From: a virus
Length of the DNA: 64,000 bases
UHGV virus genome: UHGV-1353844
Strand: one strand, 5' to 3'
Shown here: positions 1 to 35,632 of the stretch, in pieces
Position numbering within the stretch: the stretch's first letter is position 1
Layout: every line of letters begins with the position of its first letter
Notes under the pieces: generated by a model
Told to the model about the DNA's origin: nothing
The model's input: only the letters and a program-made list of their open reading frames with translations
The model's database searches: none
Translations under genes and position numbers: made by a program

Positions 1-558
1 GTCGATTTTCGCACTGTAGAACGTTGCATCTTTCATAAAGCTCGCCATTTCTCGTTGTGCTGCCCGAGACTTGCTTTTAATCCTGGCGTGTGCACCACTT
101 TCACCCCAGTGATAAGCCAATGCAATTTCTGCAATAGTGGGCTTGCGTTTGAGTCGTTTAGTCAACCCCTTTTCTAAATGTTTAACGTAGACGGAAGCCA
201 ATAGCACCGCATTACGAGGATTGTACAAATCCGCATTGCGACTAAGTCCGATTTCGGCACCGTAGAGTTTTAGCAAATTGCGCTTTGTGCTCGGTAGCAT
301 CTGAACCAGACTGTGCGCTTTAGACGTTCGATTATACGCCTTCGGATTAAACCGTGACTCTCGATAGATTAGCGTGGTCATCAAATTAGGATCGACACCC
401 TGCTTTCGAGAGATTTCCACAATCAACGGTTTTACCCGTTCGAAACGGTCTTGAATCATTTCGAATTCACGATGGTGTTTGGCATTGGGCGCGGATTTGG
501 ATGCGTATGCGTTAAACGCGAAAAGTGTTACCAGTAAAAGAAAGAAAATACGAAACAT
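1..558 (-). CDS. secreted lytic transglycosylase (SLT domain); 3' end truncated by window edge
   Basis: ATG at 558 preceded by GGAG; N-terminal signal peptide MFRIFFLLLVTLFAFNAYA; SLT-like catalytic region RESRFNPKAYNRTSKAHSLVQMLPS (E-S...NP...LxQM). ORF runs off position 1. Not in supplied ORF track because partial. Confidence 0.55.
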   Translation of the reverse strand, partial: MFRIFFLLLVTLFAFNAYASKSAPNAKHHREFEMIQDRFERVKPLIVEISRKQGVDPNLMTTLIYRESRFNPKAYNRTSKAHSLVQMLPSTKRNLLKLYGAEIGLSRNADLYNPRNAVLLASVYVKHLEKGLTKRLKRKPTIAEIALAYHWGESGAHARIKSKSRAAQREMASFMKDATFYSAKID

Positions 559-658
559 ACTAGTTCTCCAGTTGGATTTATACATTTCCGTGTTCCGTAG
601 AACGAAATCACGGCGCGGACAGCTGGAACTCCTTTGTTGTGTGCCCTAATGATAATAT

Positions 659-1183
659 CTATTTAAAAAGGTTTGGAATTAAAGGTTTTGCTTCTTGGTA
701 AAGCGTATCGGGTAAATAGAAACAGTATTGTTGTCTCCTTGGTACGAGTTTCTTTTCGATAAACAAAAAGATTTGTTGACGTTCAGCTTTTGTCAACCAA
801 CCGTTAGCCATCCCTAACGGCGGTAAAGCCACCCCACCCTCTAAGTTTTCTGCGGCATCTGCCAACGCGGTGATACCCGCGATAACATAAGAAACCTGGG
901 ATTTCAGTTTCCAATGTGTTTTTGTTGGTAAGAGAATGCAGTTTTCCTCGGGATAAACGTACACATTCCCTATTCGTATTTCGTTAGCGAAGCAACGTTC
1001 TCGGTAGTCCTGATAAAGCTCAGGATAGCGTTCTCTGCACGCTAAAGCGATACCCCGACCCATTGCCCCTACGCAATTTATCGTAACGACCTTGAAGCGC
1101 TCAGGGGCGTTAAACAGGTCGTTGTCAATAACCGATTCTGGAAGTATCGTTAGCATAACGGTCTTACCGAGTGAGGTAAGCAT
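659..1183 (-). CDS. macrodomain protein, TARG1/DarG-like ADP-ribosyl hydrolase family (putative)
   Basis: 174-aa ORF; motif TINCVGAMGRGIALACRERYPELY resembles the TARG1-type 'C-x5-MGAGIA-x2-FKK-F' signature; size typical of a stand-alone macrodomain. Start may be the second Met (MLTILPES). Confidence 0.5.
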   Translation of the reverse strand: MLTSLGKTVMLTILPESVIDNDLFNAPERFKVVTINCVGAMGRGIALACRERYPELYQDYRERCFANEIRIGNVYVYPEENCILLPTKTHWKLKSQVSYVIAGITALADAAENLEGGVALPPLGMANGWLTKAERQQIFLFIEKKLVPRRQQYCFYLPDTLYQEAKPLIPNLFK

Positions 1184-1256
1184 AATTGATGCACAGGGAT
1201 AAACCGCGTTCCGCCAATCGCTAACTCAACCAAAATCGCTATATACGTTTTAGACA

Positions 1257-1833: not shown

Positions 1834-1899
1834 AAGTAGCTCTCCTGACGTAAAAATCTCACACTCATAGTGAGGAACGTCAAGAGAGCCTTTATTGTT

Positions 1900-2343
1900 T
1901 TAGAAAGTTTTGCTGAAATCCACCCATTCTTTATCGTGAGAATAGGTTGCTTTGTAGCCACGACGAATGAAATACTCTTTCGCTTCTTTGCACTTCGTGT
2001 ACATCCCAATGGCAATTTCACCGAATGCTTCATCAGCGGCTATCGCTTTGAAGATTTCTTTCATTACCCCGCGCTGACGGTAATCAGGCAGCACGTATAA
2101 CGAACGAATTTTGAGTACCCCGTTGCGATTACGGTAACTGCAATAACCTACCGCAACATCGTCGATATAAATCAGAACAACACAGTTGCCTTCGATCAGT
2201 TGACGCACGTTTAATTTCGGTACAGCGGTTTTGATTTTCAGCATCGTTGCTTGGTGATCTAAGTAACGGTAATGGAGTGCGAGTAAATCTTTCGCTTGTT
2301 CTTCACCGATTTTAGAAAGTGCGTTCAACAAATAAATTTCCAT
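1900..2343 (-). CDS. GNAT-family N-acetyltransferase
   Basis: 147 aa; acetyl-CoA binding-like segment LYVLPDYRQRGVMKEIF (R/Q-x-x-G-x-A/G) and size consistent with GNAT fold. Confidence 0.55.
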   Translation of the reverse strand: MEIYLLNALSKIGEEQAKDLLALHYRYLDHQATMLKIKTAVPKLNVRQLIEGNCVVLIYIDDVAVGYCSYRNRNGVLKIRSLYVLPDYRQRGVMKEIFKAIAADEAFGEIAIGMYTKCKEAKEYFIRRGYKATYSHDKEWVDFSKTF

Positions 2344-2375
2344 TTATCAGACCTTACAGACGCAAAAAGATGAAA

Positions 2376-2661: not shown

Positions 2662-2862
2662 TCATGACTTCCCTCCAACACACCGCCACTCACATTCGCG
2701 TTGGTGCCAAATTGAACCCCAGGCGAGTCTAATCGCGTACGCTAAGACCACCCATAAAATCGCCGTTATACAAAATAGCACGTACAGAATGGCAACCAGC
2801 ACCATGACGCTAAACCCTAAAACGCTTAGTAACTGACGCCACCAATCAGTTTGCGTAGACAA
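2662..2862 (-). CDS. small membrane protein
   Basis: 66 aa with long hydrophobic stretches; overlaps end of upstream ATPase gene by 17 nt; stop overlaps ATG of a further 36-aa hydrophobic ORF (2555..2665) in ATGA arrangement. Confidence 0.35.
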   Translation of the reverse strand: MSTQTDWWRQLLSVLGFSVMVLVAILYVLFCITAILWVVLAYAIRLAWGSIWHQRECEWRCVGGKS

Positions 2863-5350
2863 TTTTTACTCCTTCGTTGTAAACCGCAGGCAGTGTTACG
2901 CCTTCAGGTTCAATAACACAGTATGCGGCTTCGTTAAGTTTTGAATGAATTTCTGCTTCGTGAGATACCACCAGTAACTGAGAGAACTCACCGGAATTCG
3001 CCAGGGTTTTAATAAACCCGACAAGATTATTTCGGTGTTCCTCATCCATCCCTTCTGACGGTTCATCCAACAGTAGCGGATACTGATGAAGTTTCAGGGC
3101 TTTGTAAGCGGTTAAACGAAACATCAAATTAAAGATGGCCCGCTGCGCTTTCGACCCTTTCCGCACGTCAGGTACCGGTTCAGGATGAGTTTTCAACTGC
3201 ACTGGGAACGTGTAGTCTAAGTCACCGTCGGTTAAGTCACACGGCATGACCCGCATAGGGTAGGTCCAGACTTGTTCGATATATCGCGTCATTAATTCTG
3301 TGATTCTCACGATAGCGTTGTAGAAGTATTTGCGTAATACCCCTTTCTCGGGCGAGAACGCTTGAATCATCAGCTTGTTATTAAATTGCTGCGCTTGTAA
3401 ATCCGATAACTCCTTTTCTAACGCAGTAAGTTGGTTGAGTTCGTTTTCCATCTGACGGTACCTTTCCCGTGCTGTGGTGAACGCATCCAACTTGTTTTCT
3501 CGGGCGTTTAATAACGTTTCGACCACCGTGTTGGTTAATGTTACCTTAACGTCGTTCTCTAAACGCTCAAAAACCGCATTAAAATTGTCTACAGTGACTT
3601 TAAGTTCGTTTAGATAACAAAAGGTATCATTAGCAACTGCGTGCTCTCTACGGCGCTCTGAGAGCGTTTCTGTTGCCTTACCCAAACGTTCCTGCTGGAA
3701 GGCAATTTTCTGCTGTAGTGCACCGTCAACGTTACCTACCGCTGCAACCGCATTTTCCCACTCTTTTTCCGCTTTAGCAAAACGCTGTTTCGTTTCGTGG
3801 TACTCAATTGCGGAATAAAGTTCACGATCGAACTCTGCGCACAGACTGCCAAACTGACTGCGGTTATCCGTAAAGACATTCCGCTCCTGGAGACGTTTAA
3901 AGAACAAACTCAATACCGGGTCTTTCGAGTATGTTAAAACGATTTCCCGTACTTGACGCATGTAATTAACGTCCGACTCTAATTCCGTACGGTCTCGCAA
4001 TACGGAATCAAGTTGAGTCTGTAACGTATTACGTTGCTCCATTTGTCCACGAATGGCTTCTTCCAATTCAGGCAAAGAACGACGGACACCCGGACGGAAT
4101 TTAAATTGACACTGCGGACAATCAACCTCGGCGGTTTCCAAATAGTGATTCCGTTCGTGGTTGAGATTCTGCAATACATTTTCAACACGCTGTAACCTGT
4201 CACGCAACCCAGATGAGTTTTGGTCTAAGGTCAACAGTTTCTCTTCCAGTACGTTCAACCGCTCCGTTGACTTAATAGCATCCAGTGTTGTTCCTAAACG
4301 TTGTCCCCAGACACGCGCATCGGTTGCTGCTTTAAGCTGGTCGATGTTAACGGTCTCTGCAAACAGTTCAGGGAAAAGGTGCTCAGTGTCCCACTGCTTT
4401 ATTAACTCGCGTAGTTTCGCAACCGTGTTTTTTAACCCCTCGTGATTCCGCATCAGGTAATCTTGGCGAGTGGACTCGTCCATCAACAAAGACAAATCTT
4501 TGTTTAGCATGGATAGTTCTGTTTCAGCAGAGACCACCGCTTCACGGGCAGTGGCTTCAATCCGTCGTGCTTCCTCTACTTGTTCTTCCGTAGGTAATCC
4601 GCCACGGTGTTCCAAGATAGCATTAATCGGTGCTTCGATTTTAAGCAATAGCGATTGAATCGTTGCCACCGTAACGTCACGATTCAGACCAGGCAGTTGT
4701 TCAATCTGTTTGTTGAGTTCACGTAAATCCGCTTCTAACGCTTTTAACCGCGTTGCTAATTGCTGACGTTCCTCTTCGTTATCAATTACGCGGGTACGCA
4801 ACTCTGCAATCTTGCGGCTGGTGATTTCAATACCACCGTTTAGCATCGTCAGGTTTTTTCGTAAACGTTGATAAAAACCTAACGCGTAAGTTAAGTCTGA
4901 CGTACTTAAACGGTAGAACCACTTACGGCGCAGTTCCGTTCCTGCATCCGTTAAAAGCACTTCCCCGTTCAGTAACTCTTTAATCTCTTTTGTAATGCCC
5001 GTGATTTCTTCTACGCGAGAGTTATACACTTTCGCATTACCTTGCTCGACGATTTTGGTACCCGTCGTCAGGTTCTCGATATCGCAAACCAATGAGTTGC
5101 CTTTACGTGCAACCTTAAATTTGTAACGATGGTCGTTAACCAAACAGATATTGGTGTAAGAACCCCCGTCACGGAATTCGGATTTCGAAGGTGCGATAGG
5201 TAGAAACACGGACAGTAAGCTGGTCTTACCGCAGCCGTTACCACCGAGGATAATGGTGGTTGGGGAATGGATAGTAAAATCGAAGGTTTCGATTTCGTGT
5301 AACCCCATTCCGGTAAATCCTTTAAGTACAATACGTTCAACTTTTAACAT
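2846..5350 (-). CDS. SMC/Rad50(SbcC)-like ABC ATPase with central coiled coil
   Basis: Walker A GGNGCGKTS near N-terminus; long heptad-rich middle with CPQC (zinc-hook-like); C-terminal signature-like GSKAQRAIF, Walker B LLLDEP and H-loop SHE. Start moved to ATG at 5350 (GGAGG SD 5 nt upstream) rather than GTG at 5368. Confidence 0.6.
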   Translation of the reverse strand: MLKVERIVLKGFTGMGLHEIETFDFTIHSPTTIILGGNGCGKTSLLSVFLPIAPSKSEFRDGGSYTNICLVNDHRYKFKVARKGNSLVCDIENLTTGTKIVEQGNAKVYNSRVEEITGITKEIKELLNGEVLLTDAGTELRRKWFYRLSTSDLTYALGFYQRLRKNLTMLNGGIEITSRKIAELRTRVIDNEEERQQLATRLKALEADLRELNKQIEQLPGLNRDVTVATIQSLLLKIEAPINAILEHRGGLPTEEQVEEARRIEATAREAVVSAETELSMLNKDLSLLMDESTRQDYLMRNHEGLKNTVAKLRELIKQWDTEHLFPELFAETVNIDQLKAATDARVWGQRLGTTLDAIKSTERLNVLEEKLLTLDQNSSGLRDRLQRVENVLQNLNHERNHYLETAEVDCPQCQFKFRPGVRRSLPELEEAIRGQMEQRNTLQTQLDSVLRDRTELESDVNYMRQVREIVLTYSKDPVLSLFFKRLQERNVFTDNRSQFGSLCAEFDRELYSAIEYHETKQRFAKAEKEWENAVAAVGNVDGALQQKIAFQQERLGKATETLSERRREHAVANDTFCYLNELKVTVDNFNAVFERLENDVKVTLTNTVVETLLNARENKLDAFTTARERYRQMENELNQLTALEKELSDLQAQQFNNKLMIQAFSPEKGVLRKYFYNAIVRITELMTRYIEQVWTYPMRVMPCDLTDGDLDYTFPVQLKTHPEPVPDVRKGSKAQRAIFNLMFRLTAYKALKLHQYPLLLDEPSEGMDEEHRNNLVGFIKTLANSGEFSQLLVVSHEAEIHSKLNEAAYCVIEPEGVTLPAVYNEGVKIVYAN

Positions 5351-5380
5351 GTCCACCTCCATATTCACGGAGCGTGGTGT

Positions 5381-15710: not shown

Positions 15711-18700
15711 ATGGCTGTCGTCCTAGACCCACACTTCAAAGAACCGGGGAATAAAATAACCGGTGAAGCGGTCGCCGTCATTGGTACGAAGTACCGAATG
15801 TTGGTACCTGCCCACGCCCCTTTTTTCACCACATCCCTGGTGGTCAAGAGCGGCGGCAAAATACTGACCTTAGGCGACGATTACGTTATTACACACCCGT
15901 ACGAGACCGGTATGTTGCGCACAGCCTATCTCGTGCACGGGATGATTTGGATTGTTAATGACAAATACAAATCGAATTTCACGGTAGATTACCACGCCGT
16001 AGGTTGTGGTGAAGCGACCCAAGAACAGATTACCGCAGAACGCGAACTCAATAAAGATAAATACCCGTCTGCGTGTCAATGGGATACCGTTATCGGCGAA
16101 GTTTACTTTCCACCGGTCGATATTCAGTTCGACTGGGAAAACTGGAAAGGTGAACTGGAATTAATGCAGGCCATTGCAGGCTTAGGTGATTCGTTAGGTA
16201 ACGTGGTGAATCGGGTAGACCCGATTGCACGTAACACGTTAGATATCGAGCATCGTGCTAATGGTACGGTTATCACGTCTGAACAGTACGCAACGTACGA
16301 CAACAAAGGTGGGTATACTTACAATACCGCTAAACGCCGTTTCTCCGTTACGTACAAAACCACCACGTTAAATGAATATTCCCTGTCGATGAAATACCGT
16401 ATTCCGGCTATTTTTCCGAATATGGGGAGTATTAATCCGAACGAACAAATCGATTGGATGTTGTGCTACGCGAACGGTGGCGCAAGTATCCTTCGTCTCC
16501 AATTAAAACAACGTAAAATCAGCCTACGACTGACAGTTGCGTTAGGCAGTGGTTCGACCGATTATGATTATACGTTAATCAACGGTTTGACCGACGATGA
16601 ATTAAAAGGCGAATTAACGTTTAGCGTTGTTCGTCAACCGGGTAACGGTGTATACGTTATCGAGGTGACGACTAACAAACAGTCCATGGACTACACCTTT
16701 AACGTTGACACACCGCCAGACGAATTCTCAGCAGGTTACACCAAAACGGATGTTGCGAAGTGGCTGAAGTACAAAACCAACGTTAACTTAAACTGGTGGG
16801 CGGCTGAGAACGATTATGCTCAATTCCTTGCGTTACCTGGTGCGCCAGAAGCAGACGTAAGTAACGACGTTTATCAGTTAATCGTTAAGTACCATCAGTT
16901 AGTAGAACAGCTCTATCGCAACGCGCCTGCGCACGAACACGTCACCCGTAAGGATAACCCACACGCTGACACCTGGGGTCCGATTCGTGCGTTAGAATTA
17001 AACGGCATTGCATCCGACGCAGCATTAGCCTACGGGAAAACTAAGGAGCAATTAACCGATTACGTAAACGCTAAGTACCCAACGCAGGCAACGTTAACCG
17101 CCCAGAAAAAACTGCTTCGTGAATCAGCGAGCAAGAACGTTAACGGCACGATTACAACGCTCCCCGGCTTTACGTCATTTACTACTGAAGTCGACCCAGT
17201 GTCGATGTCGAAGTACGTGAGTCCTTATTTTAGTGAAAGCTATGTTAGTAGTGGCCACAGATATCACGGTGCGCTTCGTTATACAGGAACGAAAAGCGGT
17301 TTCAGTGCTAACTTTAATGCGGTACCTGCCAACCTGCAAGATATTGACTTTATTGTTACCGGACGTAAAACAGCGTCTGGTAATGAAGCGGTCGGTAGGG
17401 TTGGTTTTCGTTTCTACGAAAATCCCGGTAGTAACTCCGGTAAGTACGTAGAGATTACCGGTGAAGTCTGGTCCGGTACTCTTACTATCGAACTGGCGTT
17501 GCACGGTTACGGTAGTCCTGTACCGGCAGTTCGGTATATTTCGCAAGCTCCTAATCCGGCAATACCGGATGGGGATTTTACGCTACGTTTTCAACTGAAG
17601 CGTACAGGGAATGTGTTTGACGTCGTTATTACCGTAAACAGTAAAACGTATAGCGGTCGGATTAACTTCAATAACATGGACGCTGCGTTAGAAGCATTAG
17701 AGAATCAGCACCACTTTAAATCGCTGATCAATAATGTTGCTGACGGCGTCAATATTAGTTCGCAAAACAAAGGTAACACGGTTACCATTAAGAAAGCACC
17801 TGGCGTTGTTGACGAGAGACGTTTAGGTGCTCAGTTTGTCGTTGATCCGAAATCCATTAAGTTCATCGGTCAAGGTTCTACTGACGTTAACGTGGGTAAC
17901 AACCCGGTAACGTTGCAAGCGGGAGATAACCAGCTTGTGCTATATCCTGATGACCGTGGATTACTGTGGCGCGGTAAGAAACTCTTAGACCCCACTACGG
18001 TAGCGCCGTATTTGCCGGGCAATACCGCAGGCGGTACGGGATTATTCTACGGTGCAACTACAGCTACAGTGGAACTTACGGGTAGCGGGATTAAAGCGTC
18101 GCCGTTTGTCGCAACGTTTATTCTTCCGGTTGCCGAAGACGTTACTACGTTAGCGTGTTGGCAGTTAACGGACGAATTCGGTACGGCTGAAAACCTCGCA
18201 GCAACCCCTGCGTTAATTGAAAAACTGGACGCAGAGTTTACCGGTAAGTTAGTTGCCGCCAAGTCGTACATCAACGACATGCAGCTTACCAGTTCGGTTA
18301 CTATCGACAAAATTACCTTTGGTTTAGGTAACGTTGCGAATACCCCGGACGTTGACTTACCGATTTCTGTTGCACAGCAGACCGAGCTGGACAAATACTC
18401 ACCGAAGGTTCACCAACACCCGTCTTCCGTATTCGGTGTTGCGAACGCAGACACCACGAAACGGGGCCTGATTAAATTCGGTCTGGAAGTGGATGATGCC
18501 ACTTTAGCGCTCGACGGTAGTGTGGTGATGGCGCAGACTTCCCAGATTGAAGATTTGGAGAATACCGTCGGCGGGGTTGACTCGGGTGCGCGCGTTGACA
18601 TTATTCGCTTTGGTAAGTCCGGTAACGACCTAATTGACGTTACGGTTAAAGACAAAATCCTAGTGACACTTCCTGCTTCCACGTATTTCGTTGGCGGCGA

Positions 18701-20033
18701 AACGTACGACGTGCCGTTGATGTCGGTTAACGTCACTGAACGTTTCCCGAATCTGAATAAGGAAATTTACGCAGGGATTTTTGTTGACATTGTCGATAAC
18801 AAAGCGAAGTACATTATTCACGACAGCTACAGTCAGGCTGAAACGGATACCATGACGCGCGTGGGTCTAATCGGTATTAACGACCTTTCTGAAGTGTTCG
18901 TTACTGAACTACGTAACGTGACACGGTTAGGCGATTTCCGTGAGCTGAAAGACCACGTCGCCAATGATAACGCACACATTCAGCGTTCTGCTTCACGTGC
19001 AGTGCTGGGGTTAAGCAATTTAACAGTAGGTGCGCCCTGCTGGGCTTCTGGACTTCAAGCGGTTGTGCGTGGCGAAGCAGACTGGCGTTATGTGGTTGGC
19101 GGTGGATATAAAGCACTCGATGGTGTGAAATACGACCAGCTTGCGTCGAAGTGGGTGTTTGATGCAAAAGGGGTAAGTGATAACGTTCACGGGTTTATCC
19201 ACAACCTGTTCCCGGTATTTAACAATGCGGGGATGCGAGTCAGTTGGGAAACCGAAAGCAACGCAAAAACCGGAACGGTGCTAGAAACCATCCTGGCTTG
19301 CTGGAAAAATACCGAAGACGAGTTTATGCGGTTGTCGTTACTTATCACCCGTGGTTATCGTTTAACCGACAGTAACGGTGAGTATTGTTACGCCGGGTTT
19401 GGTTTAAACTTCGGTAACGGGAAATCCGTGGTGTTAGGTTTCACGCCGACCAAACGCGTTACCCCAGCACCGTGGAGTACGTTACATCCTGACGTATCAT
19501 TTACCCACACGCGTGGTGCGAATAACGAATTAACGTTTAACGCAACGCTGACCTTAGCAGGTACTGTTTACACTATTGTGGTGTATTTGTCTGCGGCAGA
19601 TAAATACGTAAGCTGTACGGCGGCAGGTGGTACTACGCAGAAAATCTCGCTGACCGACCGTTTAACTGGGTTCAACCTCGCGCCTATCGTTAACGATCCG
19701 TACACCCCTATTTACTACGGTTTAGGGGGACTTTATGAGGACGAAGTGCGTGCTAATATCCGTTCTACGACAGACAGCATAACCGGGAACAAACTCTACG
19801 GTACGCTGTTGGATTATATCAGCAACTACTCCTCGTTAAATCGTGTACGCGTCATGGAATTGGCCGGGACAAGCTCAGACCCTGAAACGCTTAATGCGCT
19901 AGTGGCAACCGAGTTTAATAACAGCCTGGCGGATTACGCTGCGTTACCGATACCTCCTTATCTTAACAAGGAGCGCGTAATGTCGTTTATCGACACCAAC
20001 AATAAAGTGCAGGCGGTAATCATTCGCGATTAA
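15711..20033 (+). CDS. large fibre-like structural protein (1440 aa) with shared N-terminal anchor module
   Basis: GGAG SD 8 nt upstream; N-terminus carries the P-F-F ... G-D-Y module shared by the next three genes; size and position suggest tail fibre/tailspike. Confidence 0.55.
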   Translation: MAVVLDPHFKEPGNKITGEAVAVIGTKYRMLVPAHAPFFTTSLVVKSGGKILTLGDDYVITHPYETGMLRTAYLVHGMIWIVNDKYKSNFTVDYHAVGCGEATQEQITAERELNKDKYPSACQWDTVIGEVYFPPVDIQFDWENWKGELELMQAIAGLGDSLGNVVNRVDPIARNTLDIEHRANGTVITSEQYATYDNKGGYTYNTAKRRFSVTYKTTTLNEYSLSMKYRIPAIFPNMGSINPNEQIDWMLCYANGGASILRLQLKQRKISLRLTVALGSGSTDYDYTLINGLTDDELKGELTFSVVRQPGNGVYVIEVTTNKQSMDYTFNVDTPPDEFSAGYTKTDVAKWLKYKTNVNLNWWAAENDYAQFLALPGAPEADVSNDVYQLIVKYHQLVEQLYRNAPAHEHVTRKDNPHADTWGPIRALELNGIASDAALAYGKTKEQLTDYVNAKYPTQATLTAQKKLLRESASKNVNGTITTLPGFTSFTTEVDPVSMSKYVSPYFSESYVSSGHRYHGALRYTGTKSGFSANFNAVPANLQDIDFIVTGRKTASGNEAVGRVGFRFYENPGSNSGKYVEITGEVWSGTLTIELALHGYGSPVPAVRYISQAPNPAIPDGDFTLRFQLKRTGNVFDVVITVNSKTYSGRINFNNMDAALEALENQHHFKSLINNVADGVNISSQNKGNTVTIKKAPGVVDERRLGAQFVVDPKSIKFIGQGSTDVNVGNNPVTLQAGDNQLVLYPDDRGLLWRGKKLLDPTTVAPYLPGNTAGGTGLFYGATTATVELTGSGIKASPFVATFILPVAEDVTTLACWQLTDEFGTAENLAATPALIEKLDAEFTGKLVAAKSYINDMQLTSSVTIDKITFGLGNVANTPDVDLPISVAQQTELDKYSPKVHQHPSSVFGVANADTTKRGLIKFGLEVDDATLALDGSVVMAQTSQIEDLENTVGGVDSGARVDIIRFGKSGNDLIDVTVKDKILVTLPASTYFVGGETYDVPLMSVNVTERFPNLNKEIYAGIFVDIVDNKAKYIIHDSYSQAETDTMTRVGLIGINDLSEVFVTELRNVTRLGDFRELKDHVANDNAHIQRSASRAVLGLSNLTVGAPCWASGLQAVVRGEADWRYVVGGGYKALDGVKYDQLASKWVFDAKGVSDNVHGFIHNLFPVFNNAGMRVSWETESNAKTGTVLETILACWKNTEDEFMRLSLLITRGYRLTDSNGEYCYAGFGLNFGNGKSVVLGFTPTKRVTPAPWSTLHPDVSFTHTRGANNELTFNATLTLAGTVYTIVVYLSAADKYVSCTAAGGTTQKISLTDRLTGFNLAPIVNDPYTPIYYGLGGLYEDEVRANIRSTTDSITGNKLYGTLLDYISNYSSLNRVRVMELAGTSSDPETLNALVATEFNNSLADYAALPIPPYLNKERVMSFIDTNNKVQAVIIRD

Positions 20034-20046
20034 GGAGAATTTTTTG

Positions 20047-23000
20047 ATGAAAGCGTATCCTTACGATCCTCGGGGGACGAAAACCGAGAATCACTTCTTA
20101 GAGGAGCGTATCATCGGGTCAGAAAACAACAACGACCGGGTGGTGATTTTAGACCATCGCCCGTTCTTTGAAGACTTAGTCGTCAGACAACCAGGTTCAA
20201 CCACCCCACTGAGCCGTGGGGTGGATTACGAACTGCAATATCAGCTGACGGAACTGGATGACTCGGTAGCAGCCAACGTGTATTGTGGGGTACACCTTAT
20301 CAACCCATCCATCAAAGGCATTGTAACCTTTGAAGGGCAAATGCTCGGCGGTACGTTCTACGACCCGTTCGTTGACATGCTCGACGAGCTGGTGAAATAT
20401 TTGAATAACCCGGTCAGTGCAGACTGGCTGTTGTTAGACGGTAGACCGTCGTTATACCCGGCTACGCCAGCGGCAACGTCCTGGGCGGACTTGCTGAACA
20501 AAAAATATTTAGCGTCAGCGATTCACGATATCGAGCTGAAAACCGATGATGCTAACCAGCTAATTAAAGATAAATTAGCCGAAGTTAAAGCGCTAGTGGC
20601 TGCGTTGGGGAAAGAAATCGAAGCGTTTAACTACCCAGCACATATCGCCGCGACGAACCCGCACGAAACCACGAGCGCACAAATTAATGCCCATCCCGTT
20701 AACCTGAAAACACCTGACACCTTTATGGCGTACGGGTTAAAATTAAAAGCGTTAACGGAAGAACTGAAAGCGTTTCGTTTACCACAGTCAGTTATTGACA
20801 CGTATATCTCCCACTGGATTTCTTCGGAAGTACGGGGCGTGTTTAACTGTACGGTGTCTGGAAACCGCGCACAGTTCCGTTCGAAAAATGGTGAGTCCGA
20901 AATCATTTTTGCGAATGATGGCTTTACGTTAAAATCCAACGGTTCTGTGGTATTGGCGGTAGGGCATCTGGAAGGCACAGGTGCGGGACGTTACATTAAC
21001 TGGCGTGCGGGTAAAAACACCTTACGTATCGAGTCAACCGGTGACGCTTTAGGGATGAACAAACTCACTCTGAACGGTAACCCGTTGTTGACCACCACAG
21101 CGCTGATGGAGTATCAGCAAGACCCTGATGCTGGCGGGAGTGGCGGTAGCGATCCTGATGACTCCAAAGTGTATATCGAAGGCCGTAACGGGATTAGTTT
21201 TACCGGTAAAGGTTCTCGTGCCGATCCTATCGTGGGGACTATCGACCCGACGAAAGCGACCACCGCTGAAAAAGGTGTTGTTAAACTTAAAACCGGTAAA
21301 GGCACAGAAACGGTTGGGGTTGCTGCAACCCCTGCGTCATTAACGCCGTATTCAACCGACTTATCAGGGTACGTGACTAAAACGACCATGATTAACGGTA
21401 AACCGATGAACGACGGTTCCAGGACAATCACAAAAGCTGACCTGGGATTAGGGCAAGCGGATAACACCGCAGACCTCGACAAACCGTTGTCAACCGCACT
21501 GAATGCTTCGGTTAGTGGTTTAGCAGACGTCGGACACCATCACGACTGGTCAGAGTTAGGCATTTATAAAGCCTCGCAGTCGATTTACGGCATCGGTCGT
21601 TACGCAACTAACCAGAACGGCTTAGTTGAAAACCGTGCGGTGGTACCGAACATCTTAAAAGAGCTTTCAGCCCGTTTAGATGTGGTGGCTGCTGCAATTG
21701 CAAACGCGAAAGAAGGCACGGTAACTGATTTTGCTGCTGTGAAAGGTGCAGACTGGCGCTTTAATAGCCAGGGTACGTCAATCTCCGTTCAGGATTTGAA
21801 ATATTTCTATTTGCTGGACGGGACGAAAGGCGACAGCACCGTTACTGGTGCGATTGACCTGCAAACCACCCCGATGTTTAACTGGTTCTCACCGAATAAC
21901 CAGCTTGAACTGACCTGGCCTACGGGTAAGGTGAGTAACGGTACGGGAATCAACTGGACGGGTATTGAAGAACCGCCGTTGATGGGGTTCCAGTCTGTCC
22001 CGGTAGGTAAAACTGCTACACAGATGGGTGACCAGTCAGTCGTTACGGTTCTGGCAAAAACGCGTGTAAGGGCGTACCAATCGAAGCTCTGGGTTTATGC
22101 CGCAGGGGGCGGACCGGTAACCGTTTATATCAACGGTAACCTAGCAGCTTCAGGCGAATCTCCACTCGTTGCAGTGTATGAAACGTCAGCAGACGTTGAA
22201 AACTACACGATTGCGGTTAAAGCTGAATGTAGTGACACGGCTAAGTCCGCAGCGGTACAGTTTGAAGTTTACGATGGGGATTACCCTGTTTACTTCAGTG
22301 GCCCTGAAACGCGCGTAGAGCTTCTCCAGGAGTTTGTTACCACGCACGTAGGGATTCGTCACTATCTGTACGTTAACATGCTCACAGGCTCTCTGTATTC
22401 GCGTGCTGAACCGATTCAGAGCATCGCAGTTGATCCTGAACGTGGTTATATCGGTTACGTTGATATTGTTGCTGGTGAGAATTACGCGAATAAAACGGTA
22501 GGGTTCGAAACCACGTTTGATTTCGGGAAAAGTGCCGAGGTTAGTGAACACATCGACACGCGTAAAGCACACGGACTCAGTTCTGTGGACTGGGCGTTAA
22601 CGGATAACCCACGTTTGCCGTTATTAAACCGTGCTATTGCCGAACCAAGAGCGTGTATCTTTAGGAAAGCGTTAACAGCCGGAACAGGTGATGTTTTCCA
22701 TCTTGTCAGTCGCGGTCTTTATACTTACGCACACAACCAAAACGTGAAGTCCAGTCTTCAGTACGTTGTGATGCCTGAAGGTGCTACACCGTATTGCTGG
22801 TTTACACCGTTTAACCCGAAAGAAAACAACGCACCGACGTTCGAAGGTTCGTTTGCATTCGATGTTGACGACGTCGGTGGAACACAAGCACTTACTGCCG
22901 CACCAGATTTGGTGCTATGTACGTCAACGCAAGGGGCGAGTGTTAAACGTCGTTATGTACGTATTGACCTGACGGACAAAGCGTGTAAGTTGGGGATTGG

Positions 23001-24228
23001 TTCCCGTTCAGTTTCAGACGTTACTGACATTCCGTTGGTAATGGAAGAGTCTGGGGAAACAGCGGTGAATGCAACGTTTAAGGACGTGTTGTTCAACGGT
23101 GAAGAAACCAACCCCGCGATTCTCGATTTGATTGGCTGGGGTGCCACCCGAGATAAAATCTCTGCAAACCATGCACCTCGTGGGATGATTCGTTACCGTT
23201 ATAACGTAAGTACGCGTGTGTTACGTTTAGCGTTGTCGTTCTCGCAGTTTGGGACGACGACAGTTAAACAACGTCAATTGGAGATTCAATTCCCGTTTGA
23301 CTTGGTGGATTATTTCACCGGTGACGGAATAGGGTTGTCGTTTAAAGAACTGAGCGCGAAATGCCGAGTAACAATTAGCCACGCACTGATTGATCCGGTT
23401 ACGAACAACATCGACATTGATAAGTATCATTACTTACGTTCGTTGTTTGAGTCGTATTTGGATTCATCCGTTGGGTATTTGGCTGATAACAAAGACGCTG
23501 ATTATAGTCAGTCTGTGATTGACCCTGCGACTTATGAGATTAGTCAAAAATACCGTGCCACGGAGAGCATTGCCTTGCCAACTGGTCAGGGAAACGTTGC
23601 GGTTTCTCACGATGGGCAGTTACCTGCGCAGTTCTTTGATCGTAAGCTGTCTCGCGGTGCGCTGATGGCGAAGAAAAACGAACTGCATACTTCCTGGAAC
23701 AACGAGTGGAGTACGACTAAGGCTGCTGCAAGTCGTTATCGTCACAAACTCATTCTCCGTTTTGCACAAGGTGCCGATAAACAACAGTACCGAATTGCAA
23801 AAGTGTCAGGAACGATAAAAAGTAACTGGCCAGGTAAGGTGATTATCGGCGACGCAGGGAAAGACCCATTCTTAGCGTCTACTGATAGCGCAGAGTTTGC
23901 TCTGTCAACCAGTGCTGACGTAGGTAAAGCGATTAGTATCACGGCCACCGACTTACGTGTAGGTCAGGACATCTATATTGTCTTAGACCCGCCGGGTGAT
24001 AATCCCGAAGGTTACGAGCTTAACTTTACCTGTTCGTTAGACGTGACTGATGAGCAAAGCACTCGTCAGGATCAGCTTAATGCGCAGAGCTTCGAACTGC
24101 GTAGCGGTGAAAAGCAGTTCTTAATGGAGAAACGCAATCCGTACCATATCACGAGTAAAGCGTGGAAATGGATACTTTCTGTACTGAAACGTGAACTTAA
24201 CGGGAAGCAGTTAGGGGATCGTACTTAG
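20047..24228 (+). CDS. tail fibre protein (1393 aa) with shared N-terminal anchor module
   Basis: ATG at 20047 with AAGGAG SD (track starts at TTG 20044); N-terminal HRPFFEDLVV...GVDYEL module; canonical tail-fibre motifs ATTAEKGVVKLKT and ITKADLGLGQADNTADLDKPLSTAL. Confidence 0.65.
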   Translation: MKAYPYDPRGTKTENHFLEERIIGSENNNDRVVILDHRPFFEDLVVRQPGSTTPLSRGVDYELQYQLTELDDSVAANVYCGVHLINPSIKGIVTFEGQMLGGTFYDPFVDMLDELVKYLNNPVSADWLLLDGRPSLYPATPAATSWADLLNKKYLASAIHDIELKTDDANQLIKDKLAEVKALVAALGKEIEAFNYPAHIAATNPHETTSAQINAHPVNLKTPDTFMAYGLKLKALTEELKAFRLPQSVIDTYISHWISSEVRGVFNCTVSGNRAQFRSKNGESEIIFANDGFTLKSNGSVVLAVGHLEGTGAGRYINWRAGKNTLRIESTGDALGMNKLTLNGNPLLTTTALMEYQQDPDAGGSGGSDPDDSKVYIEGRNGISFTGKGSRADPIVGTIDPTKATTAEKGVVKLKTGKGTETVGVAATPASLTPYSTDLSGYVTKTTMINGKPMNDGSRTITKADLGLGQADNTADLDKPLSTALNASVSGLADVGHHHDWSELGIYKASQSIYGIGRYATNQNGLVENRAVVPNILKELSARLDVVAAAIANAKEGTVTDFAAVKGADWRFNSQGTSISVQDLKYFYLLDGTKGDSTVTGAIDLQTTPMFNWFSPNNQLELTWPTGKVSNGTGINWTGIEEPPLMGFQSVPVGKTATQMGDQSVVTVLAKTRVRAYQSKLWVYAAGGGPVTVYINGNLAASGESPLVAVYETSADVENYTIAVKAECSDTAKSAAVQFEVYDGDYPVYFSGPETRVELLQEFVTTHVGIRHYLYVNMLTGSLYSRAEPIQSIAVDPERGYIGYVDIVAGENYANKTVGFETTFDFGKSAEVSEHIDTRKAHGLSSVDWALTDNPRLPLLNRAIAEPRACIFRKALTAGTGDVFHLVSRGLYTYAHNQNVKSSLQYVVMPEGATPYCWFTPFNPKENNAPTFEGSFAFDVDDVGGTQALTAAPDLVLCTSTQGASVKRRYVRIDLTDKACKLGIGSRSVSDVTDIPLVMEESGETAVNATFKDVLFNGEETNPAILDLIGWGATRDKISANHAPRGMIRYRYNVSTRVLRLALSFSQFGTTTVKQRQLEIQFPFDLVDYFTGDGIGLSFKELSAKCRVTISHALIDPVTNNIDIDKYHYLRSLFESYLDSSVGYLADNKDADYSQSVIDPATYEISQKYRATESIALPTGQGNVAVSHDGQLPAQFFDRKLSRGALMAKKNELHTSWNNEWSTTKAAASRYRHKLILRFAQGADKQQYRIAKVSGTIKSNWPGKVIIGDAGKDPFLASTDSAEFALSTSADVGKAISITATDLRVGQDIYIVLDPPGDNPEGYELNFTCSLDVTDEQSTRQDQLNAQSFELRSGEKQFLMEKRNPYHITSKAWKWILSVLKRELNGKQLGDRT

Positions 24229-24265
24229 GACAGGCTGCCTGCGGGCAGTTGTGTGTCCGTAGGTA

Positions 24266-24300
24266 ACCCCTCCCTGTAATGGGGAGGGGTATCCATTTTA
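24266..24300 (+). terminator. terminator-like hairpin between fibre genes
   Basis: ACCCCTCCC-TGTAAT-GGGGAGGGGT followed by ATCCATTTTATTT. Confidence 0.45.
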
Positions 24301-24322
24301 TTTAAAAGTAGGAGTCTTTACG

Positions 24323-27300
24323 ATGCCGAGAGAAGACGCGGCGCAGTTTAACGGTACGCTAAGCACAGCGACGTACCCTAACCGATTTAACGTGGTCATT
24401 CCGCCTGAAGGACCTTTTTATCGTATCGGATTAAAACTCACAGTAGCCGACGATACCGCGCCTAACGGACGTCGTACTCTGATTGAGGGGTTGGACTACT
24501 ATTTAGGCTATTACTTTAAAGAACTCGCAGAAGCTGAACAAGATCAGATTTACGGCGGGTTTATGTTGCTTACTGCAACAGAAATCGAATATGAGATTTT
24601 AGGGGTAGCACGTCAATACCGTGTACCGCAATCTGAAATCGGGAAGTTCTTAGTTCGTACTGACCTGAAAGACCCACGTAACGTGGACTGGTCTGAACTA
24701 ATGGCGTATGCGCCGGTTATTCAGCCTATCGACCCGCCTGCTAACTTAGAAGAAGCGATTCTGAGGGATGAGGTTGTTAAGGCGTTAGAAGACATTCGCA
24801 AGAAAATCATCAAACGTTCTACGGAATTAGATGCTGCGTTCAGTGAAGTCACTAACTTGATTTACGAGAACGGTAAAAAGGTTTTCGACGAAGAGTTATA
24901 CCAGCATCACCGTAACCCTAACGCGCATCATTATACCACTGATGACATTGCTGCTCTCCCGGTATTAGGTCGTGCTGTTGACGCTACAAAAGCGTTTGGG
25001 TTGACGATTGACGAGTTGGCTACGCTGATGGGTTCAGCGGGTATTGAGCAATCGGACGTTGACCAGTTAATGGGTGAAGCCCTCGGCACCGTTTACGGTC
25101 GATGGGGTACCACGAACGGTAATGAATTAACGTTTAAAACGTCAGGTGGCCACATCATCAGTATTCGTGGTGATAAGTGGTTAATTACCTCGCCACAACC
25201 GTTGGTGATTAAAGCAGACCAGGACAACAACGAATCGGGTTTAGCGGTTGAATTCAGTGCGGGTCTGAATACGCTTTGGGTTCACTCGGGGTCGGAACAG
25301 GACGTATTAGCGCCAGTTTATAACTCCGTGTACCTGGTTACACCAGAAATGGTGAACATGTATCTGACGTCAGTAACGTTGCTTGAAGCAAACGCGTATT
25401 TCAAAGCGTCAGACACTGTAAAACCGTACGGTACCGCAAAACAGACTAACCCGGTTACGTTAAACGCGAATATTCCCACGGCGTCCGAATCAGTTTATGG
25501 GTTGTTCTCGATTACGAATATCTCTACGTCTGCGGCGTTAGGTACTGCTATCTCCCAGAAAGCTGTAACAGAATTAAAAGACCGCTTGGACTTGTACGTT
25601 GACGATGACTATACCGTTAACGGTAAAGGGTTTGTTAAAACAGGCGACAATATGGTGTTAACCTTAACGAAAACCGATTTCGGTATCGATAAGATGGATA
25701 ACACCATACCGAGTGATAAGCCTGTGACAAAAGCGTTAACGAACGTGTTGAAAAACAAGAGTTTGAAAACGCACACCCACACCACTGCTGACTTGGATAA
25801 CGTCCCGATTGGTAGTGCAACGGTTGACGGTATCTTACAGCTCTGGGATGCAATTGACACCACTAACGATAAAGCTGTCACGTCGCGTCAAGGCTGGTTG
25901 TTCGCAAAAGAGATTAAGAAGGTCTCTGATAAACTGAATACCATCTTACCGGCGTGGACGGTAGGTGGAGCGAAATTCGGTAACAAGAACTTCTTACCTA
26001 TCCCAGCGTTAGGTAACTACGCAGGCTATACCAAAAACCAGTCCTACCAGAAAGGGGTTGTTGGGTATCAGCAGGGTAAGGTTTATTCGCTCCGTAACGG
26101 TTCTAACGGCGTGCCGGGTACGGAAGCTATTTATTACGGCTATGCTGACATTGACACGTCAAACGCGTTTGTAAATCCGCAGCAGACCTCAGTGAAATAT
26201 CACCCTGCCGGGATGAGTAAATATCCTGGGGTGACCCTAATAGCGATATTGATCGGTGGCCAGGAAGCGATTATTTGCCTGGGTTCTGACAATAACCGTT
26301 ATTTGGTGCTGTTTAATGGCTCGATGGACCACACTAAGCACACGGTGGTATGTCGCGTTACGATGCCCGTGTACCGTAACGGCAACCCCAGTGGTACTGT
26401 GGAACAAACCTGGAACCCGTGGCCGGAAGCTGACGATGTCGTGTTGGTTGAGGACTACGTTTATCTTCTCCGTTCAACGGTAAATAACTCCGCTTACGCC
26501 GTAGCAGCTTGGCGTCTACGTAAGGCCGATTTGTCTACTAACACTACGTTAGAATTTGAACGTGTAACTCTAACCGGCGAGATGGGACAATTCGGAGATA
26601 ACCTCTGCTTGCGTATTGGTCAGAAAACCGAAGAGTCGCAAACGGGTCAATTCTTTACATATCTCACACCGGAGGGTCGTGCTAAATGGACGATCGGGCG
26701 TAACTTTGTTCACGGTCCAGAATGTAACCACGCGTGTGCTGTGCGCGATAGCGTGATTCGTGTGAACCATATGCCTACCGTGTGGTTTGCAGCGGCCGAC
26801 GGTACGACGATTAATTTCCTTCAATGGGCAACAAGTTTTACAATCGATACGTTGACGGGCAAGGTTACGTTAGAAGGCCGCGAACGCTTCCCCATCAAGG
26901 CTGATGCTACTACTACACTCTCGTTCGCAGATGGTTCAACTGTAGGAACCAATCGTAAGTGGGGTGGTGGCCAGGCAAACAACCGTTGTTTCGCGACGTA
27001 TGCTAAACCCAACGGTACAGGAATGATGCTTTCCTGTTGGCAAATTGCCGATGCGGACCAAATGCCTAATGTTTCTATTAAGAGTACACAAGGCAGAGAG
27101 CTTTTCGATTATCTGCGTTACGATAACCCAAACAACACCTCGGGCGAAGGAACGTTTACCTGGGATAAAGGCCGTGGCTCCATTTACACCATCGGTTTGT
27201 CTTATCCAGTAGGGATTGGTGGTTCGAATAAGGTCTGGTTATCGAACCCTCGTAACCGTTACACGATCGAAGTGGAAGTTGATCCGAACAAACCTTACGA

Positions 27301-29509: not shown

Positions 29510-29549
29510 TGACTCGAGACAAGGACGTCTCGAATAAAGGAGAGTGGCC

Positions 29550-30749
29550 ATGGCCTCCATTGTTTATCAATATCCTTTAGATTTAACGGGCTCGCTAACG
29601 TCTAACGCTGTAGAGCGTCAGATTACGTTAGGTACAGGTAAAGTAAACCGTGCTTTTGCTTTTCCTGACGGCCCGTTCTTTGCGGACACGTTCCGTTTAC
29701 GTGTTGCTAACCGACCGGATGCAACCTACGAACGTGGTACCGATTATGAGTTGATTTTTGCACACCCGACTTATGAAAAGCTGACTAAAAACCGCGAGAT
29801 TGTTATGGCGGTGGTGGTCACTAACACAGCGATTCCAACAGATATTACGGTATCTGCGCAGGTCGTTGGTGGTCCACAGTCTGCGAACATTGTGGCTATC
29901 GAACAGGCGATTGCTGAATTAAACCTCGATAACCGTACGATTGCGTTTAAAGACCTGCGTAACGTACCGGATACATTCCCATCTGCACCGACGTATAAAG
30001 ACGTGGGTGACATCTACGGTTTTGAATATATCATTACCGTATTGGCGGGTATTAAAGATGCGATCAGTTCCGGTGACGCGGTACAGTTAGAGAACATTAA
30101 AGCGATTTTAGAAAGCCTGAAAAATGACTTCTTAGACGCTTTAAATGCACACATCAACGCAACCGGTAACGTTCACCATCTTGATATTCATCAGGTTAAC
30201 GGGTTAACAGAAACTGAAATCCGTGCGCTTATTCGTGACGTCCAGTCTGCCATCGACGCAACGATTACGGAAATCAATGCACTGAAGAAAGCGGACGAAG
30301 CTTTAGGTAAGCGTATTGACGCTGTTGTCAACTCTCTGGAAGCGTGGAACGACCAACTTAACGTGGTTGCTCAAAACTACCAGAAAATGGCCTTAGCGTT
30401 AGCGAACCTGAACTCGTTAGTGTTACAACTGCAAAAGAGCATCAACGATTTAAACACAAAACTGAATCAGGTTATTCAGCGTGTTGCCGCGTTAGAGCAA
30501 CAGGGTCAAGAAACCGATCAGAAAATCGATCAGGTACAACAGAACCTGGATGCGCTTAAACAGCAAGTTAACAATAACACGAACGCAATCAGTCAAGCGA
30601 ACCAGAACCTACAAAACCACATCGCGGCAGATAACCCGCACACCGGTTATCTCCACAAGAGATACGGTGGTGTGGTTCAGGCCCCAGTACACGTTAACGC
30701 TAACCTGACGTCTCGTGATGACGTACAGGCGGAAGCGGGTACGAAATAA
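29550..30749 (+). CDS. fibre-associated protein (399 aa) with shared N-terminal module and C-terminal coiled coil
   Basis: ATG at 29550 with AAAGGAG SD (track starts at GTG 29544); N-terminal DGPFFADTFRL...GTDYEL; C-terminal half Q/N/L-rich heptads. Confidence 0.55.
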   Translation: MASIVYQYPLDLTGSLTSNAVERQITLGTGKVNRAFAFPDGPFFADTFRLRVANRPDATYERGTDYELIFAHPTYEKLTKNREIVMAVVVTNTAIPTDITVSAQVVGGPQSANIVAIEQAIAELNLDNRTIAFKDLRNVPDTFPSAPTYKDVGDIYGFEYIITVLAGIKDAISSGDAVQLENIKAILESLKNDFLDALNAHINATGNVHHLDIHQVNGLTETEIRALIRDVQSAIDATITEINALKKADEALGKRIDAVVNSLEAWNDQLNVVAQNYQKMALALANLNSLVLQLQKSINDLNTKLNQVIQRVAALEQQGQETDQKIDQVQQNLDALKQQVNNNTNAISQANQNLQNHIAADNPHTGYLHKRYGGVVQAPVHVNANLTSRDDVQAEAGTK

Positions 30750-31953: not shown

Positions 31954-32841
31954 ATGAAGAACGATCTACATCTTGCATATACGACAACGTTCAATCATCC
32001 ACTTCACATCTCTTCCCCTGATTCGGTACGTCACCATCTTGCTGATGATGTACGCTTAATTGCCATGATTCCTGGGGAATGGCCGAAAGTGCGTGGTCGT
32101 CATATCGCTAATCGTGACAACTTTACGGTTGAGAATACGTTCAAAATTCGTGATATGGTTGGCGAAAGCATCGTTGTCTTTACCGGTGACAACTCACAAC
32201 GCGGTAAACTTATCGACGGTAAATATTTCTTTAGCGACGGTGTGTTAAATAATACAGTTGACTTAGAACTTATGTTCACACCGTTTGAAGAACTCGATGC
32301 TAAACCAATGGCCCGTCGTTGGTGGAGTCCAGACTACCTGGGTGCGTTCCCTAACTATTACGCGTTGGTTGAAAAAGATACCAAAGAGTATTTTGATACG
32401 GAACCGTATATCGATATTGAAGGCTATCAAGAACTCGGAATTACGCATCTGGCCGACTTAATGGCGTACAGCTATAAGTTCGAATGGATTCGTGAACGTT
32501 CGGTTTGGAAAGCCATCACTGACGAACACGTGATTACGAAACGCATTCGTAAACCGTGGATGCAGCATATGGTTCAGGTACGTTTTGGTCAGAGCCCAGC
32601 TACCGAAGCGGACATTTCCAAACTCGTCAGCTTCTTGCTGTCGAAAGTTAAACTGACTGACGAAGAAGCCGAAGCAGTTAAGCCGATGCTTGACCGTGTT
32701 GTGACCTTAGAAGACCTCAAACGGATGAATAGCCGCTACAACGAACTTAACCGTTTACTGGAAGCGTATAATTCGCCACTGATTTTAAAACCCGGTGTTA
32801 ACTTCGACGAAGATCCTTTATTCGCCATCGATTATATTTAA
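31954..32841 (+). CDS. hypothetical protein in radical-SAM operon
   Basis: 295 aa; GGAG SD; between Cys-repeat genes and radical SAM genes. Confidence 0.5.
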   Translation: MKNDLHLAYTTTFNHPLHISSPDSVRHHLADDVRLIAMIPGEWPKVRGRHIANRDNFTVENTFKIRDMVGESIVVFTGDNSQRGKLIDGKYFFSDGVLNNTVDLELMFTPFEELDAKPMARRWWSPDYLGAFPNYYALVEKDTKEYFDTEPYIDIEGYQELGITHLADLMAYSYKFEWIRERSVWKAITDEHVITKRIRKPWMQHMVQVRFGQSPATEADISKLVSFLLSKVKLTDEEAEAVKPMLDRVVTLEDLKRMNSRYNELNRLLEAYNSPLILKPGVNFDEDPLFAIDYI

Positions 32842-35103: not shown

Positions 35104-35632
35104 ACTCCACCTGGTTGAGCGTTTTCTGCGCAAACACAAACTCTATAACGTTCACGCCATTATCCCTGGTGAAGACTTTACAGATGAGATTAAACCTCTG
35201 TTGATTAAGTACGGGCTAAACGTGATGATTCCCGTTTACTGTACAGAGACAGGCCATGAGTCCGTTGTGGAAATCGAAAAACGTAATCCGGGTTTCGAAC
35301 AACGCGTACTGGATTACCCACGCCACAAGATCGAATTGCTTCGTTATTCTGCGGAGAATCCGAGTAGCGCATCTATTGCTGCATTAGCGGTGTCTTTCCC
35401 GCGTCTGCCAATCCGTTGCTTGCGTTCTACGTCTATCTACGATGCTTATTACGTAGAGCATCAGACGTTCAACGAAAATGTGTTACCACAGTTAACGGAT
35501 GAAGAACGCGACATTGCAAACGTGGTGTGGTCAAACGATCTCTCTGAAACCTTCCAGTTGGTTGATTTTGGCTTGCTGCAAGAATTAGGTATGGTTGGAG
35601 AAGAAGAATGTCTGCTTCTAACAAAAGCTTAA
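35066..35632 (+). CDS. hypothetical protein in radical-SAM operon
   Basis: Start moved to ATG at 35066 (GAGG SD) rather than 35042. Confidence 0.4.
   Translation: MKSILIHNFTKRKLHLVERFLRKHKLYNVHAIIPGEDFTDEIKPLLIKYGLNVMIPVYCTETGHESVVEIEKRNPGFEQRVLDYPRHKIELLRYSAENPSSASIAALAVSFPRLPIRCLRSTSIYDAYYVEHQTFNENVLPQLTDEERDIANVVWSNDLSETFQLVDFGLLQELGMVGEEECLLLTKA

Follow-up and report, generated by a model that had tools for sequence, protein, structure and literature searches.

In the virus genome UHGV-1353844 a stretch of 64,000 nucleotides (nt), referred to below as the window, carries a gene for a small stand-alone macrodomain near its left end, on the minus strand. The neighbouring genes encode an SLT-domain endolysin, members of two small PHROG families and a GNAT acetyltransferase. 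The macrodomain is a member of the family named AdfM (anti-DarT factor macro), and it would remove the ADP-ribose that the bacterial toxin DarT2 attaches to phage DNA. The mechanism of this known family was published in 2026, and the window protein opens no new question about it.

A preliminary description of the locus reported a gene of 174 amino acids (aa) at 659..1183. The open reading frame (ORF) listing of the window contains this frame, on the minus strand, and the motif quoted for it, NCVGAMGRGIALACRERYP, corresponds to residues 36-54 of the 174-aa reading. The start at 1183 has to be revised, since the second in-frame ATG, at 1156, is most likely the site of translation initiation, giving a product of 165 aa. 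In 38 of 39 aligned homologues the protein is 150-170 aa long and starts at a Met equivalent to ATG 1156 (M10 of the longer reading). Gene calls on three metagenomic contigs (L005-L007) give the 165-aa product in identical form. In two of these, L005 and L007, AAG stands in place of the upstream ATG at 1183, and the 165-aa protein is unchanged. When the 174-aa product was looked up by exact match in the gene-call collection, no record was found. On these three grounds the 174-aa reading was rejected. The ATG opening the longer ORF is polymorphic among near-identical metagenomic relatives (upstream of L005 position 10001 and of L007 position 3729); therefore, gene calling by a longest-ORF rule will over-extend the gene in the variant present in the window. 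In gp217 of Erwinia phage Asesino the equivalent start is preceded by an AGGAG Shine-Dalgarno sequence. A scan for sigma-70 promoters and terminators around the gene found nothing above shuffled sequences, which is uninformative for phages using their own RNA polymerases. The features of the locus are listed in Table 1; residues of the window protein are numbered according to the 165-aa reading unless the 174-aa reading is named.

Table 1. Features of the macrodomain locus and residues of the window protein aligned with ADP-ribose-contacting residues of T. aquaticus DarG
Feature	Position	Strand	T. aquaticus DarG equivalent	Basis
Coding sequence of 165-aa stand-alone DarG2-like macrodomain (AdfM orthologue)	659..1156	-		ATG 1156 to stop 659-661; ORF, identity to gp217, PADLOC, AlphaFold2, Foldseek
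Nine in-frame codons (MLTSLGKTV) ahead of the likely start, probably untranslated	1157..1183	-		AAG variant, homologue starts, no 174-aa record
NCVGAMGRGIALACRERYP, first ADP-ribose-binding loop, residues 27-45	1022..1078	-		Alignment to 5m31 and 5m3i
PTKTHW segment, residues 77-82	911..928	-		Alignments to DarG, PhiKZ AdfM and TARG1
PPLGMANGW, second loop (glycine-rich, phosphate-binding), residues 112-120	797..823	-	G117-G121	
Residue N27	1076-1078	-	N22	
Residue R34 (conservative change)			K29	
Residue A39			Q34	
Residue T78			T79	
Residue K79	920-922	-	K80	
Residue H81			H82	
Residue W82			W83	
Residue G115			G117	
Residue A117			G119	
Residue N118			N120	
Residue G119			G121	
SLT-domain endolysin homologue, downstream neighbour, cut by the window start	1..585	-		Pfam SLT 2e-14
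GNAT acetyltransferase, 147 aa, same leftward gene string	1900..2343	-		Pfam Acetyltransf_1 2e-08; PHROG 3810

Comparison with PDB by phmmer matched the window protein to the DarG macrodomains of M. tuberculosis (5m3i, E 2.6e-21) and T. aquaticus (5m31, E 2.3e-18), to which its pairwise identity is 38% and 35%, respectively. A family profile built from 40 homologues, searched against the same database, matched M. tuberculosis DarG at 2.2e-39, T. aquaticus DarG at 9.5e-37 and the T. africanus DarTG fusion at 2.4e-24, with TARG1 at 4e-8 and Poa1p-type phosphatases at 7e-6 or worse. The DarG model was the sole match in PADLOC (E 5.7e-32), and the DarG equivalog was the sole match in NCBIfam, covering model positions 7-154 of 338 with 110 bits against a cut-off of 250 bits. 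Likeness of this degree to DarG-type macrodomains lies well outside chance.

An exhaustive profile search of 1.84 billion representative proteins yielded 13,532 matches with E<=1e-3; the stricter limit of E<=1e-30 leaves 362. The first ~10 in rank stand alone, with lengths of ~160-170 aa, and directly after them come longer proteins in which the macrodomain occupies one end. Ten of the longer proteins were sampled, and each matches the DarG model: two as full-length DarG (381 and 400 bits), the others through a DarG-type macrodomain joined to a different partner, DprA being one example. One of the nearest non-phage relatives in the representative library (P0071, 441 aa) joins a DarG-type macrodomain to a DprA DNA-processing domain, and this fusion ties the macrodomain type to single-stranded DNA (ssDNA) handling.

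The AlphaFold2 model of the window protein (mean predicted local distance difference test score (pLDDT) 94.3, predicted template modelling score (pTM) 0.90) has the predicted architecture of a macrodomain, a three-layer alpha/beta/alpha fold with a mixed beta-sheet, in which two Gly-rich loops make up the pocket for ADP-ribose. Foldseek gave 1076 matches in PDB, 180 of them at E<=1e-3, and the top ranks are overwhelmingly macrodomains. The best is 5m3e, T. aquaticus DarG with ADP-ribose (template modelling (TM) scores 0.78/0.84, root-mean-square deviation 2.1 A), followed by M. tuberculosis DarG, T. africanus DarTG, S. coelicolor SCO6735 and TARG1, the last with a TM score of about 0.68.

The residues of DarG that contact the ligand (Jankevicius et al. 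2016) were mapped to the window protein by HMMER and MAFFT alignments (Table 1). K79 aligns with Lys80, the catalytic residue in T. aquaticus DarG, and with K78 in PhiKZ AdfM and K84 in TARG1; N27 also corresponds to N23 of PhiKZ AdfM. W82 is the counterpart of DarG W83, the proposed thymine-stacking residue, beside the distal ribose. Among the 40 homologues N27, V29, G30, A31, M32, G33 and G35 of the first loop, T78, and P112, G115 and G119 of the second loop are invariant, and for K79 conservation reaches at least 90%. Thus, by alignment, both the catalytic Lys and the Asn specific for DarG are conserved in the window protein. In T. aquaticus DarG, K80A inactivates the enzyme, whereas N22A, K29E and G119E impair it, and the macrodomain by itself suffices as an antitoxin (Jankevicius et al. 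2016).

The preliminary description had proposed a macrodomain of the TARG1/DarG class, to be checked by profile search and structure prediction against both proteins. Both analyses favour the DarG type: searches by sequence, profile and fold are all led by DarG macrodomains, ahead of the MacroD, Poa1p, TARG1 and viral nsP3 types. The proposal is supported, with the refinement that the protein is of the DarG and not of the TARG1 type. TARG1 (OARD1, PDB 4J5S), which acts on glutamate-linked ADP-ribose of proteins (Jankevicius et al. 2016), is of the same macrodomain sub-class and carries its catalytic Lys in the T-K motif as well, but its profile match is far weaker (4e-8 vs 2e-39), about 30 orders of magnitude behind the DarG macrodomains. 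The column of TARG1 Asp125, a catalytic residue that resolves the lysyl-ADP-ribose intermediate, is occupied by Gly (G119) in the window protein, as in DarG (profile ...LGmanGwl... vs ...IGCGLDRL... in TARG1), and the column of N27 holds Ser in TARG1. Because of these two columns the window protein is classed as a DarG-type (DarG2) rather than a TARG1-type macrodomain.

The architecture differs from that of a bacterial toxin-antitoxin (TA) module. The C-terminal DarT-binding domain of DarG (~340 aa in all) is absent from the 165-aa protein, the NCBIfam match ending at model position 154. No darT was found among the adjoining genes, and the DarT family (DUF4433) does not appear in the Pfam tables for ~10 kilobases (kb) on each side in L005. 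A full-length DarG TA module was rejected for lack of both the C-terminal domain and a darT neighbour, and for the same reason the window protein is, from its sequence and setting, classed as an orphan antitoxin macrodomain. It shares with DarG (PDB 5M31, 5M3E, 5M3I) the macrodomain sub-type, the catalytic residues K80 and N22 and the majority of the contacts to ADP-ribose, and the predicted chemistry is likewise the hydrolysis of ADP-ribosyl-thymidine in ssDNA; it differs in being encoded by a phage and not by a bacterial TA operon, in the missing domain and partner gene, and in sequence (35-38% identity).

Tblastn located the protein in 255 phage records, the best matches (61-65% identity) coming from STsAS, SPFM19, SEGD1, Asesino and Stratton, which are jumbo phages of Seoulvirus and Erskinevirus; PhiKZ-like phages follow at ~35%. 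Megablast of window positions 1-6000 against GenBank phages returned no nucleotide match, and the phage is recognisable at the protein level only. With Asesino gp217 the window protein shares 62% identity over 164 aa, that is, over its full length, and with PhiKZ gp104 35% (E 4e-28). The whole 64-kb window is collinear, in inverted orientation, with positions 106-178 kb of Asesino (~72 kb), at 35-80% aa identity (local tblastn with all window ORFs). In the conserved order an SMC/SbcC-like gene (gp207) is followed by small genes, the GNAT gene (gp212), gp213, gp214, the macrodomain (gp217) and the SLT endolysin (gp218). The macrodomain occupies the same slot in both phages, between the gp214 homologue and the endolysin and downstream of the SMC/SbcC-like gene. 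Asesino gp215 and gp216 (63 and 146 aa; 175828..176459), which lie between gp214 and AdfM, are without counterpart in window 1184..1256, and at the place where Asesino holds them the window has only a gap of 100 nt ahead of ATG 1156. As a stand-alone DarG2-like macrodomain in the slot of gp217, the window protein is an AdfM orthologue.

The AdfM proteins were named by Morgan et al. (Cell Rep 2026, PMC13309987), who described this DarG2-like macrodomain of chimalliviruses in PhiKZ (gp104), PhiPA3 (gp108), Goslar (gp83) and Asesino (gp217, in Figure 1B). In that work PhiKZ gp104 stripped ADP-ribose from an oligonucleotide modified by DarT2, the N23A substitution lowered its activity, and DarT2 toxicity in E. 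coli was fully rescued by the protein. PhiKZ deleted for AdfM lost titre only on DarTG2-positive clinical strains, where packaging was blocked, and fusions of the PhiKZ, PhiPA3 and Asesino AdfMs with green fluorescent protein localised to the phage nucleus (PMC13309987). Like these proteins, the window protein stands alone at ~165 aa, with the same active-site Asn and Lys and the same Ala in the LG-x-A-N-G loop. It differs from the named AdfMs in coming from an uncultured phage. The Erskinevirus/Seoulvirus-related clade has a C-terminal tail of ~35 residues (conserved YLP...L..EA) that PhiKZ AdfM is without, and PhiKZ AdfM has an insertion before the second loop that this clade is without.

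With a probability of about 0.8, the gene encodes an orphan DarG2-type DNA ADP-ribosylglycohydrolase, which erases DarT2 thymidine marks on phage ssDNA and probably works inside the phage nucleus. This reading draws on the fold, the family, the catalytic residues, the orphan architecture, and the orthology and synteny with Asesino gp217, all observed here. During infection, DarT2 of a host DarTG2 system would ADP-ribosylate thymidines in single-stranded phage DNA at a TNTC-type motif. The phage macrodomain could bind the ADP-ribosyl-thymidine, and Lys79, helped by Asn27, would hydrolyse the bond between ribose and base, so that normal DNA is restored and replication and packaging can proceed. 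By analogy with the Asesino orthologue, import of the protein into the phage nucleus, the site of phage DNA, through the PicA pathway is probable. The preliminary description had likewise suggested that the phage reverses ADP-ribosylation of its DNA by DarT, and this suggestion gains support from the orthologous AdfM family, for which such reversal was demonstrated experimentally (PMC13309987).

Evasion of DarT2 by avoidance of its motif was considered and rejected. On both strands of the window TNTC occurs 2158 times, against an expectation of 2033 +/- 40 from shuffles that preserve dinucleotides (z about +3); the motif is slightly enriched and not depleted. The phage DNA thus offers DarT2 a potential substrate, and on DarTG2-positive hosts an enzyme of this kind would be needed.

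Several points weigh against this function or the gene model behind it. For the window protein itself we infer the enzymatic activity, the DNA substrate, the counter-defence against DarTG2 and the nuclear localisation. Asesino gp217, the nearest characterised orthologue, was tested for localisation only and not for activity (PMC13309987), and the biochemically proven PhiKZ gp104, at 35% identity, is no closer to the window protein than the bacterial DarG macrodomains are (35-38%). Two ADP-ribose contacts of T. aquaticus DarG are changed (Q34 and G119, both to Ala). Pfam Macro scores 20.1 bits, just below its gathering threshold of 22 bits, with profile positions 3-107 of 118 covered; Pfam by itself would therefore not have settled the family. 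The Shine-Dalgarno sequence ahead of ATG 1156 is weak. Chimallin and PicA are not encoded in the 64-kb window; the chimallin of Asesino, ChmA, corresponds to gp039, which the syntenic range (gp135-gp218) does not include. Because the ChmA locus falls outside this range, the assignment of the phage to the chimalliviruses rests on collinearity. Erskinevirus and Seoulvirus, the genera of the closest named relatives, belong to Chimalliviridae, and Asesino forms a chimallin nucleus; by this relatedness the window phage, too, would belong to Chimalliviridae and would form a nucleus with protein import.

Equal distance from PhiKZ AdfM (35%) and from DarG (35-38%) means that one capture and several captures of chimallivirus AdfMs both fit the data. 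It is conceivable, if doubtful, that the Erskinevirus/Seoulvirus-related AdfM clade goes back to a separate capture of a DarG macrodomain whose specificity differs, being directed for instance at DarT variants that recognise other motifs or at another nucleic-acid adduct, or that its C-terminal tail is a clade-specific determinant of nuclear import.

Action on protein or RNA instead of DNA, in the manner of TARG1 or viral nsP3, is unlikely. The ADP-ribosylation to be reversed could in that case originate from host ADP-ribosyltransferase defences, such as mRNA modification of the CmdTAC type, or from the phage's own ADP-ribosyltransferases. The substrate of the window protein is assigned by analogy, the catalytic Lys is common to TARG1, a protein de-ADP-ribosylase whose match is much weaker but still significant, and jumbo phages commonly encode macrodomains as well as ADP-ribosyltransferases (PMC9503650); according to this computational survey of phage macrodomains, 56% of jumbo phages carry one. 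The margin by which DarG macrodomains outscore TARG1 and the Gly at the Asp125 position nevertheless argue against it, as do the equivalents of the DarG-specific N22 and W83, where TARG1 has Ser and Ala. Moreover, the orthologous AdfM family acts on DNA and localises to the DNA-containing phage nucleus.

A housekeeping role is still less probable than action on protein or RNA. As an ADP-ribose-1''-phosphate phosphatase or O-acetyl-ADP-ribose deacetylase, the enzyme would serve the metabolism of by-products of NAD or tRNA splicing. PHROG 335, which matches the window protein at 2e-30, is labelled 'phosphatase', several phage records label homologues as Appr-1-p processing proteins, and phmmer against PDB gives a weak match to Poa1p (E 0.02). 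The labels are generic macrodomain names that predate the characterisation of DarG, and the PDB entries of M. tuberculosis and T. aquaticus DarG bear such names too; the Poa1p match is confined to the first ~40 residues and counts for little next to DarG, and the tested family member acts on DNA. The 'phosphatase / Appr-1-p' reading was rejected because the Poa1p matches are weak and partial.

Least credible of all is a weak or inactive ADP-ribose binder, whether it soaks up or senses molecules derived from ADP-ribose or acts as a DarT-binding decoy: the two changed contact positions and the existence of phage anti-DarT factors that bind DarT without catalysis (ICP1 AdfB, PMC11481870) speak for it, but the catalytic Lys and Asn are conserved and purifying selection is evident across the 40 homologues, enzymatically active PhiKZ AdfM has the same Ala at the DarG G119 position (LGCANGG), the DarT-binding C-terminal domain of DarG is missing, and the T. 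aquaticus macrodomain K80A by itself does not inhibit DarT (Jankevicius et al. 2016).

Read as a DNA de-ADP-ribosylase, the window protein can be compared with other anti-DarT factors. AdfN of T4-like phages is an orphan DarG1-like NADAR (Johannesman et al. 2025, PMC11825919). Both are orphan enzymatic halves of a host antitoxin that erase, or in the present case would erase, DarT-placed ADP-ribose from phage DNA; the NADAR fold is unrelated to the macrodomain, and AdfN is directed at guanine adducts of DarT1 and not at thymidine adducts of DarT2. ICP1 AdfB, a small DarT-binding mimic, is a distinct anti-DarT factor (PMC11481870).

The window protein adds an environmental member from an enterobacteria-type jumbo phage to the AdfM family and supports the view that, against DarTG2, phages that form a nucleus still need an anti-defence enzyme that repairs DNA. 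It corrects the generic annotations of such genes ('phosphatase', 'Appr-1-p processing', 'hypothetical'). It also flags a gene that should widen the host range on Enterobacteriaceae carrying DarTG2, which is relevant to the choice or engineering of jumbo phages for therapy.

The genes around the macrodomain had been described earlier as an accessory cluster with a GNAT acetyltransferase and a secreted lytic transglycosylase. The GNAT gene is present, with 39% identity to Asesino 174483-174917 (gp212). For the transglycosylase, the SLT domain and a hydrophobic N-terminus are confirmed, and the protein is identified as a phage endolysin homologue with 54% identity to Asesino gp218, a 'putative endolysin'; the full gene encodes 228 aa in L005-L007. 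Its N-terminal hydrophobic segment MFRIFFLLLVTLFAFNAYA resembles a signal peptide or a signal-anchor-release sequence. The term accessory cluster is not appropriate, the genes forming a block with synteny conserved in Erskinevirus and Seoulvirus phages.

Within this block the SbcC/SMC-like gene of 840 aa (window 2846..5368, minus strand) is found in two pieces on L005 (5790..8311; 162 and 697 aa) and as one gene of 834 aa on L006; these close relatives may differ here by a frameshift or in their assembly.

Other parts of the window provide further observations. At 15711..30749 (plus strand) four consecutive genes encode virion proteins of 1440, 1394, 1728 and 401 aa with a common N-terminal PHROG 2163 module. 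These proteins cross-match one another's PHROG families (7557, 8078, 7449) and form a paralogous array of giant proteins, corresponding to Asesino gp190 to gp187. Two adjacent, slightly overlapping genes at 32862..33779 and 33769..35103 (both plus strand) encode radical-SAM proteins of 305 and 444 aa (Pfam Radical_SAM and Fer4_12). The pair is kept in Asesino (gp181, gp180), and the flanking genes at 31954..32841 and 35042..36282 are also conserved. Tandem paralogues of 176 and 178 aa at 36351..36881 and 36951..37487 (both minus strand) match the single Asesino gp176 at 33% and 43%, respectively, and, judged by this comparison, represent a local duplication relative to Asesino.

The tail fibre of 1488 aa, encoded at 50919..55385 (minus strand), matches Asesino only in its first 38 residues. 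Its distal 500 aa are 50-65% identical to fibres of P1-like/SSU5-like phage-plasmids of E. coli and Salmonella and of T4-like phages of Enterobacter, which looks like a swap of a host-range module. The likeness of the distal fibre suggests an enterobacterial host; DarTG2 systems are known in enterobacteria (PMC7003065).

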